A DNA stretch of 48,145 nucleotides from a virus (Duplodnaviria > Heunggongvirae > Uroviricota > Caudoviricetes). How positions within the stretch are numbered: the stretch's first letter is position 1; each line of letters begins with the position of its first letter. Made by a program: the position numbers and the translations under genes. Location: the IMG/VR virus record IMGVR_UViG_2526164669_000027, one strand, 5' to 3'. Shown in pieces: positions 7,522-37,972 of this stretch. The notes under the pieces were generated by a model. That model was not told the DNA's origin. It did not search any database and saw only the letters and a program-made list of their open reading frames with translations.

Positions 7522-8169
7522 TCAGCGACCAATCACCACAACCTGACCACCATCACCCTCATCAGCAGTACTGATACTCTGTGAAATCACACGCGACCCC
7601 ACACGCATCTCACCATACAGTACCGGTAACGGATTCCCCTGGGCGATCATATTATCCAGCGAGGAAAAAAAGGTGTTCTGCTTGCCGTTATCCGTTGTCT
7701 GTGTACGGGGGGTTTTGGGTTTAGGTGCCAGCATCTGCGCCACACCGCCCAAGATCATACTGGCCCCTGCCGCATACATGCCCGATACAGCCGCGGCACC
7801 CAGCCAGCCCACAGGGTTCCACCATGCCACCGCAATCAACGCCGCCCCCAGCACCACCTGAAATACACCGCCACTTTTAGCTCCCGCCAGACGCGGCACG
7901 ATATGGATCACGGCACCATTTGCCAGCGGCTCATTAAGACGGGCAGATAATTCGGTTTCACCTGCATCACGCCCGGCAATGCGCACCTGATACCAGCCGT
8001 CATTCAGCTTCTGACGAAACGCCGGGAGCTGTGTGGCCAGCGCCCGGATGGCTTCGGCCCCCGTTTTCACACGAAGGTCGATGCGGCGGCCAAATCGTTG
8101 CAAATCCCCGTAAAGGCAGATGCGTGCCATGCCCGGTGACGCCAGAGGGAGTGTGTACGTCGCTGCCAT
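7522..8169 (-). CDS. I: tail assembly protein I
   Basis: Translation MAATYTLPLASPGMARICLYGDLQRFGRR... closely matches lambda I as recalled. Confidence 0.9.
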   Translation of the reverse strand: MAATYTLPLASPGMARICLYGDLQRFGRRIDLRVKTGAEAIRALATQLPAFRQKLNDGWYQVRIAGRDAGETELSARLNEPLANGAVIHIVPRLAGAKSGGVFQVVLGAALIAVAWWNPVGWLGAAAVSGMYAAGASMILGGVAQMLAPKPKTPRTQTTDNGKQNTFFSSLDNMIAQGNPLPVLYGEMRVGSRVISQSISTADEGDGGQVVVIGR

Positions 8170-8810
8170 TTGTCGGTATACCTCTCTCGTTTGCTCAGTT
8201 GTTCAGGAATATGGTGCAGCAGCTCGCCGTCACCACAGTAAATGGCGGCATGATTCGGCACCGATGAACCAAAACAGCACAGCAGCACATCGCCCGGTTG
8301 TGCTGATGACAACGGCACCTGATACAGCCCCGTGGCCTCCAGATTATCCAGATAGAGATTCTGACCGTTACGCCACCAGTCATCCCCGCGATGAAAATCC
8401 GGCATCTCAATCCCCGCCAGATGATAAGCATCCCGGAACAGCGTGTAACAGTCCGTCACCCCGTGCTCAAAGCGTCGCCCGGTAAGATGCGGCACACTGC
8501 GAAATTTATGAATCTCACCCCGGCAGACCAGCCACCAAGGCAAATCGCTCTGCACCTGCAGCCGCCGGTCGGCCTCACTCAGCCAGGGCAGACCACCGGG
8601 GTGGCTGTGGACCAGCGCCACAATCTCACCCTGCATCTCTGCCCGCAGCCAGTCCTCCGGCGACATCCGGAAATACGCCTCCGGCTCACCGGAGATATTC
8701 ACGCAGGGAAAATATCTTTCCCCTTCCGGCGTTCTCACCACGAAGCCGCACGACTCCGCTGGCGCACATCGCCGGGCGTGCGCCAGAATCGCTGATTCTG
8801 TCTCTGTCAT
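8067..8810 (-). CDS. K: tail assembly protein K (NlpC/P60 plus MPN-like domains)
   Basis: Translation MTETESAILAHARRCAPAESCGFVV... closely matches lambda K as recalled; overlaps I as in lambda. Confidence 0.9.
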   Translation of the reverse strand: MTETESAILAHARRCAPAESCGFVVRTPEGERYFPCVNISGEPEAYFRMSPEDWLRAEMQGEIVALVHSHPGGLPWLSEADRRLQVQSDLPWWLVCRGEIHKFRSVPHLTGRRFEHGVTDCYTLFRDAYHLAGIEMPDFHRGDDWWRNGQNLYLDNLEATGLYQVPLSSAQPGDVLLCCFGSSVPNHAAIYCGDGELLHHIPEQLSKRERYTDKWQRRTHSLWRHRAWHASAFTGICNDLAAASTFV

Positions 8811-34794: not shown

Positions 34795-35090
34795 ACAGCC
34801 TCCTTACGCGGCATAACAATGGTGTAACCCCGGGCAGGCTGGAACCGGGCTTTTACATCAATAGTGAGCGTTGCAATTTTTCGGATACGCAGATACCCCG
34901 CCCTTTCCAGGGCCAGGGTTTCTCTGAACATTGCCTGTTTTGAACAGCAACAAAAATCGGCAAGGACCTGGTGATCAATAACCCTCTCACCTTCACCGTC
35001 TGAAGAACCCGACATCAAAACACGCAACATAATCAGGCGCTGAATCGGATTATCGAAAACACTTCCGCATACAAACTGAAAACAGTTCAC
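34791..35090 (-). CDS. hypothetical protein with winged-helix-like segment (99 aa)
   Basis: ATGA-type overlaps with both flanking genes; ..ETLALERAGYLRIRK.. Confidence 0.5.
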   Translation of the reverse strand: MNCFQFVCGSVFDNPIQRLIMLRVLMSGSSDGEGERVIDHQVLADFCCCSKQAMFRETLALERAGYLRIRKIATLTIDVKARFQPARGYTIVMPRKEAV

Positions 35091-35311
35091 ACGGCACCTC
35101 CCAGGCGTTTAAACATTTTTCCGGACTGAAACACCGCCAGTGGGTAGCTAATGGTGTAGTTACGCCCCAGTAATTCACACACAACTTTCTGGTTTTCGGT
35201 GCTGACCAGACAAACCCGCAGAACGTGACCGTTGCTGGTGGCGAACCACTGCCCCACACGGGGGCAACGGTTGTATCGGTGATACAGGGAATTAACGACG
35301 CGGCGAATCAT
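35087..35311 (-). CDS. hypothetical protein (about 74 aa)
   Basis: Start MIRRVVNSLYHRYNRCPRVGQWF... overlaps the stop of the upstream paralog. Confidence 0.4.
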   Translation of the reverse strand: MIRRVVNSLYHRYNRCPRVGQWFATSNGHVLRVCLVSTENQKVVCELLGRNYTISYPLAVFQSGKMFKRLGGAV

Positions 35312-35964
35312 GGGCGCACCTCCCATTGATTACGACGGAAAGCGGTGTGACTGAGACTGGTTTCAGTTTCATGGAATGCTTCAATGCAGCTCTCGTAGTA
35401 CCGCATTGTGCGCAGACTTAACCCAAGCTGAAGCATCATCAGGCCATCAAGGGTGATGTAATAACCACGCAGGGAGTCACCATAGATGTGATAAGTACCC
35501 GGTATGAAATTGCGGGTAAAAAACTCGCGTGAGCAGTTCAGATACTCGATTTTGTCGACGATGTTCTGGTGCATGCGCTTGAAATGGCAGGCTACATGCA
35601 AAGAGAAAATAACGGTCTTACCGTTAATAATCTCAATTTTGAGGAATGGGTGGGTAGTGGTGGTAGTCATGGTGACAGCCCCTATGTTGAATTCAAAGAA
35701 CTCACCACATGGGACGCCAATCACAGAGGTGGTGAGACGTACAGGGTTGGCGTAACCGGTCAACATAGAACCCGGCGCATCTTGCGATGCCCCTGCACGC
35801 CCCACCATAATTTGGGCGTAGCAATGCTCATGACACGAAAAAACCGCATGAGCGCGGTTATGCTCTATATTGAATTTCAGGACGCCAATCCCGGCACCCG
35901 CTTTATAAGGTGCAGAGACAGTGTAACGTCCCAAAAGTGCAGAATCAATATGTTGGCGAATCAT
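35308..35964 (-). CDS. hypothetical protein, paralog B (about 218 aa)
   Basis: MIRQHIDSALLGRYTVSAPYKAGAG...; C-terminal 110 aa near-identical to the upstream copy; coupled to flanking genes. Confidence 0.6.
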   Translation of the reverse strand: MIRQHIDSALLGRYTVSAPYKAGAGIGVLKFNIEHNRAHAVFSCHEHCYAQIMVGRAGASQDAPGSMLTGYANPVRLTTSVIGVPCGEFFEFNIGAVTMTTTTTHPFLKIEIINGKTVIFSLHVACHFKRMHQNIVDKIEYLNCSREFFTRNFIPGTYHIYGDSLRGYYITLDGLMMLQLGLSLRTMRYYESCIEAFHETETSLSHTAFRRNQWEVRP

Positions 35965-36600
35965 GGGCGCACCTCCCATTGATTACGACGGAAAACAGTG
36001 TGATTCAGGTTGGTTTCAGCCTCATGGAATGCTTCAATACAGCTCTCGTAGTACCGCATTGTGCGCAGACTTAACCCAAGCTGAAGCATCATCAGGCCAT
36101 CAAGGGTGATGTAATAACCACGCAGGGAGTCACCATAGATGTGATAAGTACCCGGTATGAAATTGCGGGTAAAAAACTCGCGCGAGCAGTTCAGATACTC
36201 GATTTTGTCGACGATGTTCTGGTGCATGCGCTTGAAATGACAGGCAACATGCAGAGAGAAAATAACGGCCTTGCCGTTGACGACTTCGATTTTGAGGAAT
36301 GGGGAAGTTGGGACAGTAGCCATGATGGCAGCCTCCGTATGCAATGGATAACTTCCACCACCGGAGCTGCGAAACTCATGGGTGGTGAACTGAACAGGGT
36401 TCGCAGTACCGGCGCATACGGAAACCGGCGAGCCTTTCGGCCCCCCTGCCCAGCCCACCATAATTCTGGCGTGCGTGAGCGCGGACGATAAAAAAGACGC
36501 TGGCGCGTCATATATCGCCGTATGCAATTCCGGGCTGCGACCCCCGGCACCCGCTTTATAAGGTGCCGGAACAGTGTAACGTCCCGAAATTGCAGAATCA
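35961..36600 (-). pseudogene. paralog A of the 218-aa protein; no in-frame ATG/GTG/TTG at the position equivalent to the paralog B start (possibly 5'-truncated)
   Basis: Homology to paralog B starts near 36600 (..STQCIDSAISGRYTVPAPYKAGAG..); upstream frame runs antisense through the toxin-antitoxin genes. Confidence 0.4.
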
Positions 36601-36635
36601 ATACATTGTGTGGATATAACAATTTTGTTATCTTT

Positions 36636-36971
36636 ATGGACATGAACTACACTATCGAATACTACAGTGAAGAGGTCAGGCTGGAGGTCGACCAGCTTCC
36701 ATTGAGTATGCGTGCCCGATACCAGCATCTTGTTGAACGCATGAAGGTATATGGCAGCAATCTCGGAGAACCTCATACCAGTGCTTTCGGTAACGGGCTT
36801 TTCGAGCTTCGGATTAAAGGCAGCGATGGCATCGCACGCGTCTTTTACTGCACCCTGGCAGGAAAACGCATCATCATGCTGCATAGTTTCATCAAGAAGA
36901 CCCAGAAAACCCCACCAGCCGAACGCCAAAAAGCTGAAACCAGAATGAAGGAGGTAAAGCATGACTGGTAA
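36636..36971 (+). CDS. type II toxin, RelE/HigB-like (phage gp49-type)
   Basis: MDMNYTIEYYSEEVRLEVDQLP...FELRIKGSDGIARVFYCTLAGKRIIMLHSFIKKTQKTP: size and motifs typical of gp49/HigB-like toxins; overlaps the downstream HTH gene by 11 nt. Confidence 0.75.
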   Translation: MDMNYTIEYYSEEVRLEVDQLPLSMRARYQHLVERMKVYGSNLGEPHTSAFGNGLFELRIKGSDGIARVFYCTLAGKRIIMLHSFIKKTQKTPPAERQKAETRMKEVKHDW

Positions 36972-37269
36972 ACGTAATCCGCCAACCATTACACATGATG
37001 AAATGGCTGATAAATGGATGGAGGATCCAGCTTTTAAAGCAGAATACGACGCCATCGCCGACGAATTTGCGTTGCTTGATGAAATGCTGGCAGCACGTAA
37101 AGAAGCTGGTTTAACCCAGGCTGAGATCGCTGAGCGTATGGGAACCAAAGCAACTGTCATCAGCAGAATGGAAAGTAATCTGGCGTCAGGTGTCAGTGGA
37201 CCATCATTTTCCACACTGAAAAAATTTGCCCGCGCAACAGGAAAAAAACTCCAGATCCGCTTCGTGTAA
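36961..37269 (+). CDS. HTH (XRE-family) antitoxin, HigA-like
   Basis: ..EAGLTQAEIAERMGTKATVISRMESN.. helix-turn-helix; coupled to the toxin gene. Confidence 0.75.
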   Translation: MTGKRNPPTITHDEMADKWMEDPAFKAEYDAIADEFALLDEMLAARKEAGLTQAEIAERMGTKATVISRMESNLASGVSGPSFSTLKKFARATGKKLQIRFV

Positions 37270-37483
37270 GTTTCCACCATTACGCCGTCACTCTGGCGGC
37301 GCTTCACACTCCACAAAATCACGACGAAACAACCACAACGGACTGAAGCATTCATGCGAATAACCATCACGCAGGTAAATGACCCGCTGTGTTTCAGACT
37401 CCCAGCGTATAACGTGGACGCGACGCCCTCTGCCATCGCGGAACCAGCGATTGAGTACTTGCATGTGTTACCTGTGAGCATAA

Positions 37484-37930
37484 TCACACCTGCCAGCCCA
37501 GCGCCTGAAACAGGCCCATTTTCGGGTGATACCAGCGAGTACCTCGTGGTTCTGCTTCACTCATCATGCGATAAAAAGCAAACATGAAGGGTTCTACTGC
37601 AACAATCGCGCGACGAGACAATAATCCGTCCGGCGTCATAAATTCATGGGTGTCGGTAGGGATCTGATATGCGTTCACCAGATTGCGGCATTTCGCATCT
37701 GACATACCTGTTTTCGCCACCAGCTGACGGTATCCTGCATAACCATCGCATATGGTGCCTCTTTTGATTTGTTCGACAGTTTCGGCAACGTGGCTAACTT
37801 TTTCTTCCATCTTGTCGAGGCGTTTTTGCTGACGAACTGCTTCAAGAGCCATCGCGGCAACCATTTCGATTTCGCTCATTGGCTTACGGATCTGTTCTTC
37901 CAGTTCACGCCAACGATCTACCAGGCGGGC
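37484..37930 (-). pseudogene. Rha-family antirepressor, C-terminal fragment (gene split by IS insertion)
   Basis: Frame is open from the IS junction at 37930 downwards; continues the frame of the N-terminal fragment across the element. Confidence 0.7.
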
Positions 37931-37972
37931 TGAACCGCCCCGGGTTTCCTGGAGAGTGTTTTATCTGTGAAC

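Follow-up and report, generated by a model that had tools for sequence, protein, structure and literature searches.

Two tandem antisense-RNA control cassettes of the P4/P1 type probably underlie the "Ash" reading frames of an Escherichia coli lambdoid prophage

The 48,145-nucleotide (nt) virus sequence IMGVR_UViG_2526164669_000027 (hereafter, the window, that is, the whole stretch of DNA that was analyzed) is a lambdoid prophage located at yecE, with a LexA-type CI repressor and E. coli as the host. Directly upstream of the replication genes, it contains two adjacent, homologous open reading frames (ORFs) with closely similar C-terminal halves and divergent N-terminal halves. An earlier note, made from the sequence alone, interpreted this arrangement as a conserved protein domain fused to variable N-terminal modules and suggested specificity switching. 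The question that the locus raises is, then, what kind of molecule carries this specificity, a protein or an RNA. We propose, with considerable confidence, that the two units are tandem antisense-RNA control cassettes of the P4/P1 type, each preceding a small Rha-like regulator gene. The cassette type as such is known (C4 or CI RNA with IsrK or a1b1); the new aspects are the cargo, the position, the heterospecific tandem pair and the cover of the cassettes under a protein family name.

A tandem repeat with a conserved and a variable half

The earlier note described a unit of roughly 650 bp that is present twice, with a junction motif at about 35300 and 35957. Both observations were accurate: a 653-bp unit is directly repeated on the minus strand, and the motif, read along that strand, lies at 35328-35302 and 35981-35955.

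35302-35954, minus strand: unit A (downstream copy)
35955-36607, minus strand: unit B (upstream copy)
35302-35328 and again 35955-35981, minus strand: junction motif CAATGGGAGGTGCGCCCATGATTCGCC (end of the Rha-like ORF, Shine-Dalgarno (SD) sequence, ATGA), identical in the two copies

The segments 35302-35601 and 35955-36254 are 96% identical over 300 nt, which makes a chance origin of the repeat impossible. Across roughly 35400-35579, the 30-nt blocks of the two copies are 100% identical, and this run of identity between the two ORFs suggests recent gene conversion; in the rest of the repeat unit, identity drops to only 40-83%. Altogether, 135 of 657 positions distinguish the copies; within the variable halves, the nucleotide difference is 36%. 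At the protein level, the C-terminal halves have 106 of 113 residues (94%) in common and the N-terminal halves 42 of 105 (40%), in agreement with the earlier estimate.

Copy A is an ATG-started ORF of 218 codons (35308-35964, minus strand), which is chained via ATGA/GTGA overlaps to a 74-amino acid (aa) ORF, a 99-aa ORF and an O-like gene; the IstB/DnaC-like loader gene starts 1 nt after the latter, and the loader and DnaB-like helicase genes overlap by ATGA. Thus, the earlier description of this ORF as coupled into the chain of replication genes stands, with the one detail of the 1-nt spacing. In copy B (frame 35961-36617, minus strand), there is no ATG, GTG or TTG within 12 codons of the equivalent start, again as previously noticed: the head of the frame reads ATT GTT ATA where strain EC11 has ATG GTT ATG.

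Before the content of the units is considered, two trivial explanations that the earlier note itself raised can be addressed, namely, that the repeat is an assembly artefact or that the plus-strand ORFs at 35569-35982 and 36141-36491 are the real genes. Apart from the fact that these plus-strand frames are open, nothing speaks for either, and we regard the chances of both together as negligible. The 135 differences between the copies, along with similar arrays in independent assemblies (loci L004, L008, L009 and others of our comparative set), exclude an assembly artefact; the junction that links the 3' end of one unit to the 5' part of an A-type unit is covered to at least 80% in 101 complete E. 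coli genomes. The plus-strand ORFs have no match in Pfam or PHROGs and are interrupted in the ST131, PPyecE and phiP27 relatives.

Each variable half matches two regulatory RNA families

In an Rfam scan of the window, each variable half yielded, on the minus (coding) strand, one match to the isrK family (RF01394) and one to the C4 family (RF01695), all above the respective gathering scores of 50 and 45 bits. On this strand, the order of elements in a unit is a promoter-like box, an IsrK-like leader with a terminator, a C4-like RNA, two target boxes and the Rha-like ORF. The elements of unit B are as follows.

36573..36601, minus strand: promoter-like element (-35 TTGATT, 17-nt spacer, -10 TACACT)
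36490..36566, minus strand: IsrK/c4-a1b1-like leader RNA, 77 nt (RF01394, 58.8 bits)
36541-36533 and 36526-36516, minus strand: leader boxes, junction target and loop target T1, respectively (from covariation with the C4 loop and junction)
36509-36496, minus strand: intrinsic terminator with U run (terminator scan)
36378..36465, minus strand: C4/P4-CI-like antisense RNA, 88 nt (RF01695, 80.6 bits)
36424-36413 and 36406-36401, minus strand: C4 loop UUUCCGUAUGCG and junction element CUGCGA, respectively
36373-36365, minus strand: downstream junction target UUCGCAGC
36343-36332, minus strand: loop target T2 UGCAUACGGAGG, overlapping the SD sequence GGAGG
35961..36323, minus strand: Rha-like winged-helix ORF, 120 aa, with the start at M99 (ATG 36323-36321)

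The corresponding elements of unit A are listed next.

35920..35948, minus strand: promoter-like element TTGATT-17-TACACT (same alignment basis as in unit B)
35837..35913, minus strand: IsrK/c4-a1b1-like leader RNA (RF01394, 61.9 bits)
35888-35880 and 35873-35862, minus strand: leader boxes, junction target UUGGCGUCC and loop target T1 UCAAUAUAGAGC, respectively (covariation)
35859-35842, minus strand: intrinsic terminator with U run (terminator scan)
35725..35812, minus strand: C4/CI-like antisense RNA (RF01695, 80.1 bits)
35771-35760 and 35753-35746, minus strand: C4 loop GUUCUAUGUUGA and junction ACGCCAAC, respectively
35720-35712, minus strand: downstream junction target UUGGCGUCC
35690-35679, minus strand: loop target T2 UCAACAUAGGGG, overlapping the SD sequence
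35308..35670, minus strand: Rha-like ORF, 120 aa, with the internal ATG at 35670-35668; its stop and the start of the 74-aa ORF form ATGA

Both C4 matches cover model positions 1-87 of 87, and the minimum free energy fold coincides with the Rfam fold of C4 (-45.3 kcal/mol, z = -4.2, in unit B; -46.0 kcal/mol, z = -5.1, in unit A). The outer stem is 100% paired among the units compared, with 4 compensatory pairs, and in hairpin 1, 4 of the 5 pairs are compensatory. The pair of isrK and C4 matches is present in all other Ash-like loci tested, including one "double-Ash" ORF; the c4-a1b1 family (RF03163) itself is reported only for Gifsy-1 and for locus L091. The region around the units has matches in 1,575 of 5,426 complete E. 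coli genomes, and in the five RefSeq E. coli regions inspected, no RNA gene is annotated. A scan of species-representative genomes returned only 3 loci (Citrobacter braakii, Izhakiella australiensis and Salmonella), all with the isrK and C4 pair.

The promoter-like box aligns base by base with two sequences, TTGACA-17-TATATT immediately before isrK in Gifsy-1 and TTGCCT...TATAGT ahead of the P4 leader. The isrK locus of Gifsy-1 is driven by a promoter at the corresponding place (PMC4825925), and by this analogy, we infer that the box would drive transcription of the leader RNA. In the Ash frame, the box reads "IDSAISGRYTV", a stretch that is invariant or nearly so in 68 homologs. It matches 8 of the 12 consensus positions only, and for this reason was not reported by a generic promoter scan.

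The recognition elements of C4 covary with two target boxes each

The specificity of these RNAs was assessed in a comparative set of 87 related loci and the window, from which 117 units (84 distinct sequences) were parsed by alignment columns. Two recognition elements of C4, the 12-nt loop of the second hairpin and the 6-nt junction located 3' of it, each have one complementary box in the leader and another downstream. In unit B, the downstream boxes show 12 bp and 6 bp of complementarity to the cognate C4. The two units of the window carry different loop and junction specificities, as follows.

Unit B, minus strand: C4 loop core CCGUAUGC; loop targets GCAUACGG at 36525-36518 and 36342-36335
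Unit B: C4 junction CUGCGA; junction targets UCGCAG
Unit A, minus strand: C4 loop core CUAUGUUGA; loop targets UCAAUAUAG and UCAACAUAG at 35873-35865 and 35690-35682
Unit A: C4 junction ACGCCA; junction targets UGGCGU

That strand of the 48-kb window contains no further copy of the loop targets. Across the 117 units, there are 11 sequences of the hairpin-2 loop, amounting to about 10 specificities, and 6 classes of the junction, which occur in 20 combinations. Each loop can form 9-12 bp with either of the boxes in its own unit, and in all 20 combinations, both boxes fit the loop and the junction of the same unit. Cognate loop-box duplexes have predicted energies of -12 to -19 kcal/mol, compared to means of -4 to -6 kcal/mol for non-cognate ones, and the observed sum of duplex energies was reached in none of 20,000 permutations.

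Pair counts, made on 22 representative units with slid partners as controls, give the same picture at the level of individual positions. Between the loop and T2, 7 of 12 pairs are compensatory and 95.6% of the cells are paired; between the loop and T1, the values are 7 of 9 and 99.5%. The junction shows 4 of 5 compensatory pairs with its downstream box, and 5 of 6, with 99.2% of the cells paired, with its upstream box. In the slid controls, only about 40% of the cells are paired. Thus, the suggestion of specificity switching in the earlier note was half right: a specificity determinant is present in the variable half, but it would operate by RNA-RNA base pairing rather than by protein recognition. 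This covariation of three sites over natural alleles also provides a ready data set on the diversification and reshuffling of antisense-RNA specificity.

The conserved half encodes a Rha-like protein

The ATG at position M99 of the Ash frame (36323 in unit B, 35670 in unit A) is invariant and follows an invariant GGAGG/GGGG SD sequence. From this start, each unit would encode a Rha-like winged-helix protein of about 120 aa, and this half of the unit is under clear purifying selection. Substitutions between the C-terminal halves and their homologs fall mostly into the third codon position (for example, 2, 1 and 16, or 7, 2 and 27, in the first, second and third positions), with synonymous changes far more frequent than nonsynonymous ones. 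The match to the Rha profile starts about 10-20 residues into the 120-aa ORF, as in ordinary Rha proteins; phrog_518 ("Rha-like") matches both copies with E values of about 1e-14 (7e-15 for unit B), and long paralogs at the same position score 104.9 bits against Phage_pRha (PF09669). An AlphaFold2 model built from a 68-sequence alignment reached a predicted local distance difference test score (pLDDT) of 82-88 for residues 110-205 of copy A.

A further element lies inside this ORF. In the stretch encoding "NGKAVIFSL", 45 nt into the Rha-like ORF, each unit carries a terminator-like hairpin followed by AUUUUCUCU (36278-36264 and 35626-35610, minus strand). The copies differ here by a compensatory change from GGC/GCC to GGT/ACC, the same change that accounts for the A/T residue difference seen in the earlier note. 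The hairpin could act as a terminator when the Rha-like ORF is not translated; its variation among the units is too limited to prove anything.

A protein or an RNA in the variable half

In RefSeq, the ORFs of this type are labeled "ash family protein" or, when extended at the N-terminus, "Rha family phage regulatory protein". The earlier note could not assign the family. An assignment is nevertheless available, through the "ash family protein" label of the Prokaryotic Genome Annotation Pipeline (PGAP), PF10554, a marginal match to Phage_pRha, and phrog_995. At face value, such labels favor a protein alternative, in which the units encode two-domain paralogs, with a hypervariable Ash domain responsible for partner specificity fused to the Rha-like domain, and in which the RNA matches are secondary or coincidental. 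This alternative accommodates the scores of Phage_ASH (PF10554), 45.9 bits for copy A and 61.5 bits for copy B at a cutoff of 26, and the match of phrog_995 ("transcriptional regulator") over the full length with an E value of about 1e-95.

The state of the long frame also agrees with the protein alternative, and it is among the points that weigh against the antisense-RNA cassettes. The frame is open in all 84 distinct units, whereas the other two frames average 2.1 and 4.3 stops, and it stayed open in only 1.5% of shuffles. All insertions and deletions are multiples of three or are compensated within 25 nt, and a start codon is present at the head of the long ORF in 110 of 118 units, often in an ATGA overlap behind a strong SD sequence. 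A dual-coding, full-length protein of 218 aa is possible. The remaining adverse points concern the cargo and the reliance on analogy. The 120-aa forms score 30.0 (unit B) and 29.1 bits (unit A) against Phage_pRha, marginal values at a cutoff of 29.9, and 36.7-38.2 bits against TIGR02681, below its cutoff of 45.95. A structure search returned weak matches to winged-helix/APSES-like folds (Z of at most 5.6), so that a role of the product as an antirepressor or another regulator is a guess; the product shows no significant similarity to AnrP of Gifsy-1. The promoter and the processing are inferred, as are the choice between repression and activation and the start codon that is actually used. For Gifsy-1 itself, the authors did not resolve what the C4-like RNA STnc1160 does (PMC4825925).

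Set against the protein alternative is the substitution pattern of the variable half, which lacks a coding signature in any frame on either strand. Substitutions are spread evenly over the codon positions (8, 12 and 9; 17, 17 and 12), nonsynonymous changes exceed synonymous ones 3- to 6-fold, and residues 1-106 have a pLDDT of about 30 in the AlphaFold2 model. The variable positions are exactly those through which the C4 loop and junction pair with two boxes each, a coincidence that a protein model does not predict, and the "conserved protein motifs" of Ash fall where the promoter-like box, the hairpins of IsrK and the stems of C4 are located. Eight N-half segments (7 units, including B, and 1 internal domain) have no nearby start, and 3 of these belong to the sole unit of the respective locus.

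A further point against the protein alternative is that PF10554 rests on a P4 ORF lying over the CI RNA. The founding member of the family is the P4 "cI" ORF, which overlies a C4-family match. The region of this ORF, the historical "cI gene product", is known as the source of the CI immunity RNA. We also considered the P4 epsilon protein as the meaning of "Ash", an equation suggested in two papers; a published survey of P4 satellites lists PF10554 as the epsilon profile (PMC8628076). This candidate was rejected: in P4 (locus L088), epsilon (7888-8175) belongs to PF25738, "Derepression protein", and it is the "cI" ORF (8168-8584) that belongs to PF10554.

Taken together, these observations make the two-domain protein alternative unlikely, and the interpretation of the variable halves as protein modules is probably wrong. 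The earlier note holds for the two paralogous units, for the coding capacity of the conserved half and for the presence of specificity in the variable half; its N-terminal protein modules do not stand. Some translation of the RNA region is nevertheless likely, given the open long frame, the frame-preserving insertions and deletions, and the start codons at the head. Probably, the passage of ribosomes through at least part of the RNA region is selected, and the peptide sequence is not. The Ash ORF is thus, at most, a frame kept open for ribosome passage, as in orf45 of Gifsy-1, with no folded N-terminal domain.

For annotation, this would mean that the Ash "domain" is a promoter-like element with two regulatory RNAs of the P4/P1 immunity type, and puzzles over start codons, "variants" of 272-342 aa and "double-Ash" proteins would become by-products of annotation. 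Several relatives have long or fused frames of this kind. Some "ash family proteins" of 342-357 aa (P0002, P0003, P0005, P0042) contain two variable halves in one frame; in these, as in locus L087 (3545-4516), two IsrK and C4 pairs in series precede a single Rha-like ORF, with one frame open throughout. In several Shiga toxin (Stx) and yecE phages, for example PPyecE_EH1910 (locus L004, 3870-4526), and in the units annotated as 277-aa proteins such as P0052, a direct fusion joins the unit to the 3' end of the DUF4222 gene at a shared CGCCACCAG. The head ATG is lost in this fusion, and annotators then lengthen the ORF by 58 upstream codons in an overlapping frame. Judged by eye, the fused units look like a deletion joint. 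Counting those of PPyecE and of the 277-aa annotations as start-less was considered and rejected, since mostly there is an in-frame GTG or TTG just upstream.

The start-less unit B and its toxin-antitoxin neighborhood

Unit B corresponds to an allele (with the sequence ...KIVIS...) that is linked to a toxin-antitoxin (TA) module and has no start codon at the head. The module, just upstream of the unit and in the opposite orientation, consists of a Gp49/RelE-type toxin and a helix-turn-helix antitoxin (36642-37269, plus strand). As the earlier note recognized, the frame of the upstream copy runs antisense into the TA genes: a 508-codon ORF (35961-37487, minus strand) passes through the whole module, and its GTG start overlaps the stop of the upstream gene. 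We examined this ORF as a real upstream start for copy B and rejected it. It is the codon-complement frame of the toxin gene. The TA proteins of the relatives are 90-100% identical, and in the two most diverged loci, L075 and L076, the frame is broken inside the TA genes, so that it is most likely accidental.

The absence of ATG, GTG and TTG at the head of copy B, together with the inconsistent way in which PGAP and other annotators extend or truncate start-less copies, would fit a decaying pseudogene that lost its start after an in-situ duplication, with copy A the only functional one. This we consider very improbable. Unit B retains full-scoring IsrK and C4 matches, four boxes that fit its own loop and junction, and the SD sequence and ATG of M99. 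The Rha-like ORF of this unit is also intact, and its differences from the homologs are mainly synonymous. With all its own elements in place, it does not qualify as a pseudogene. Moreover, the start-less, TA-adjacent allele is the sole unit in three loci (L036, L075 and L076), and the variable halves of A and B, with their 36% nucleotide difference, represent distinct specificities that are found separately elsewhere. Under the cassette interpretation, the missing start is no defect because the promoter-like box, both RNAs, the four boxes, the SD sequence and the internal ATG are all intact.

A perfect palindrome, ATAACAAttTTGTTAT, is located at 36616-36631, before the toxin start. The substitution that completes the palindrome also converts the ATG of EC11 into ATT in the Ash frame, which suggests selection on the TA operator and not on the start codon. 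At the other end of the repeat, the SD-ATGATTCGCC joint of unit A recurs at the start of the 74-aa ORF (35087-35311, minus strand). This ORF belongs to phrog_1153, which also weakly matches a 58-aa DUF4222 protein (37288-37464, minus strand) upstream of the TA module. The shared SD-ATGATTCGCC joint and the phrog_1153 matches indicate that the borders of the units may derive from the starts of such small genes.

Arrays of units in related phages

The comparison of copy number with related phages that was proposed in the earlier note shows that arrays of two or three units are present in 21 of 79 related phage contigs (27%). In 23 of 25 arrays, all units have different loops, and the loop combination of the window is the commonest, shared by 7 loci. 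Three consecutive units are present in strain UR21/11-869 and two in phage PPyecE_EH1910; L036, overall the closest relative, contains a single unit with another specificity. Downstream of the cassettes, orf74 is present in all 79 related phage loci, and the O-like, loader and helicase genes in 70-72 of the 79.

The two halves of the units shuffle independently among relatives. The A-type variable half is joined to a short C-half in the window, EC11 and UR21/11-869, and to a long canonical Rha C-half in MFDS1019527 and the ST131 prophages. The variable half of unit A is identical to that of the second unit of UR21/11-869, and the variable half of unit B matches the single ash unit of MFDS1019527. 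Given the 36% difference between A and B and the separate occurrence of their specificities, the array appears to originate from recombination among distinct alleles rather than from a recent duplication followed by decay. Most likely, arrays arise and are reshuffled by unequal recombination, for which the junction motif, the invariant segment from the promoter to the 5' part of IsrK and the near-identical Rha-like ORFs are the most plausible candidate sites. The joint with the junction motif recurs between the units of other arrays, and the motif is likely to be the recombination joint of the array.

A proposed mechanism

By analogy with P1 c4-icd-ant, P4 and Gifsy-1, the C4-like RNA would be processed from the transcript of the unit itself and would pair with the box at the ribosome-binding site, turning off translation of the Rha-like gene. 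Polarity or termination could then turn off the translationally coupled downstream genes as well. The copy of the box in the leader might promote termination or, in the form of a free short RNA, titrate C4, so that the cassette is turned on. Two units of different specificity might enable the prophage to control or exclude two classes of related phages. An antisense-RNA gate directly upstream of the replication genes would be a concrete candidate for differences in the stability of lysogens.

A broader and more speculative possibility, to which we attach limited credence, is that phiP27-like and Stx-type lambdoid phages possess, in these cassettes, a second immunity system that is RNA-based and combinatorial. 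Under this scenario, at least 20 loop and junction "barcodes" would silence, in trans, the Rha-like and replication genes of co-resident or incoming phages, arrays would broaden the exclusion, and the open frame would serve as the switch: transcripts from the early promoter, being translated, would override the RNA block, and untranslated transcripts from the cassette's own promoter would enforce it.

Other features of the window

An IS3-family insertion sequence (37931-39241; orfA, 38860-39186; orfB, 37973-38860), with an ALIL frameshift pseudoknot at 38905-38789 (RF01497, 120 bits), has inserted into a Rha-family regulator gene, leaving an N-terminal piece of 89 aa and a C-terminal one of 131 aa (flanks 39238-39507 and 37484-37879). 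The gene is not interrupted by IS3 in L036 and L010, and its counterpart is L14 of phiP27. In the late region, there is a tRNA-like match on the minus strand (27518-27589, RF00005, 51.6 bits).

Comparison with known antisense-RNA systems

The closest counterpart of the units is the isrK-orf45(STnc1160)-anrP module of the Salmonella prophage Gifsy-1 described by Hershko-Shalev et al. (2016), which shows the same order of Rfam families, from isrK/c4-a1b1 through C4 to the ATG of the cargo. In our scan, isrK and c4-a1b1 match at 34329-34240 and C4, immediately before anrP, at 34214-34131; the cargo ATG is preceded by a box with complementarity to the loop of C4, and a promoter-like box occupies the same position. 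In that system, part of the transcripts pass the IsrK terminator, the short IsrK switches on translation in trans, and orf45, which lies over STnc1160, must be translated for translation of anrP (PMC4825925). The AUG of orf45 is at +107, compared to the AUG at +106 (M53; 36461 in unit B, 35808 in unit A) in our units, and orf45 is homologous to Ash codons 53-98. The differences are that orf45 is ATGA-coupled to anrP, whereas the equivalent here is in frame with the cargo; that the cargo is AnrP there and Rha-like here; and that the Gifsy-1 module lies downstream of Q, whereas here two heterospecific tandem units are part of the early operon, ahead of the replication genes. Among Stx phages, Rha/Ash proteins have been noted in the Eru6, Eru7 and Eru9 types (PMC8951638), and the Eru7 reference phage Stx2_14040 carries a homologous unit.

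The likeness to P4 (PLE leader with seqA, CI RNA with seqB, and seqC) consists in a single antisense RNA with complementary sites on both sides, in the location of the cassette upstream of replication genes (alpha in P4; O-like, loader and helicase here) and in the overlying ORF, which in both cases belongs to the Pfam "Ash" family. In P4, a C4-family match is found at 8507-8420, where the CI RNA is expected, along with an isrK-family match on the leader. P4 differs in that it has a single cassette and lacks a Rha-like ORF under direct control at the ribosome-binding site; the units described here reside in a lambdoid prophage that has a LexA-type CI repressor, unlike the satellite P4. The differences in specificity between P4 and phiR73 set their heteroimmunity.

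In the immI region of P1 and P7 (c4, a1b1/a2b2, icd-ant), the c4 RNA has two recognition elements, each of which pairs with an upstream (a1b1) and a downstream (a2b2) target; the one downstream extends over the ribosome-binding site of the first ORF, and allelic loops define the P1 versus P7 specificity. The units described here have the same two recognition elements, the same upstream and downstream targets, and a covered ribosome-binding site; they differ in the cargo and the context, and in that about 10 x 6 variants are shuffled among close relatives and combined in tandem units. The pairing of loop and junction with their boxes is the logic of a1b1, c4 and a2b2 in P1 and of seqA, CI and seqC in P4.

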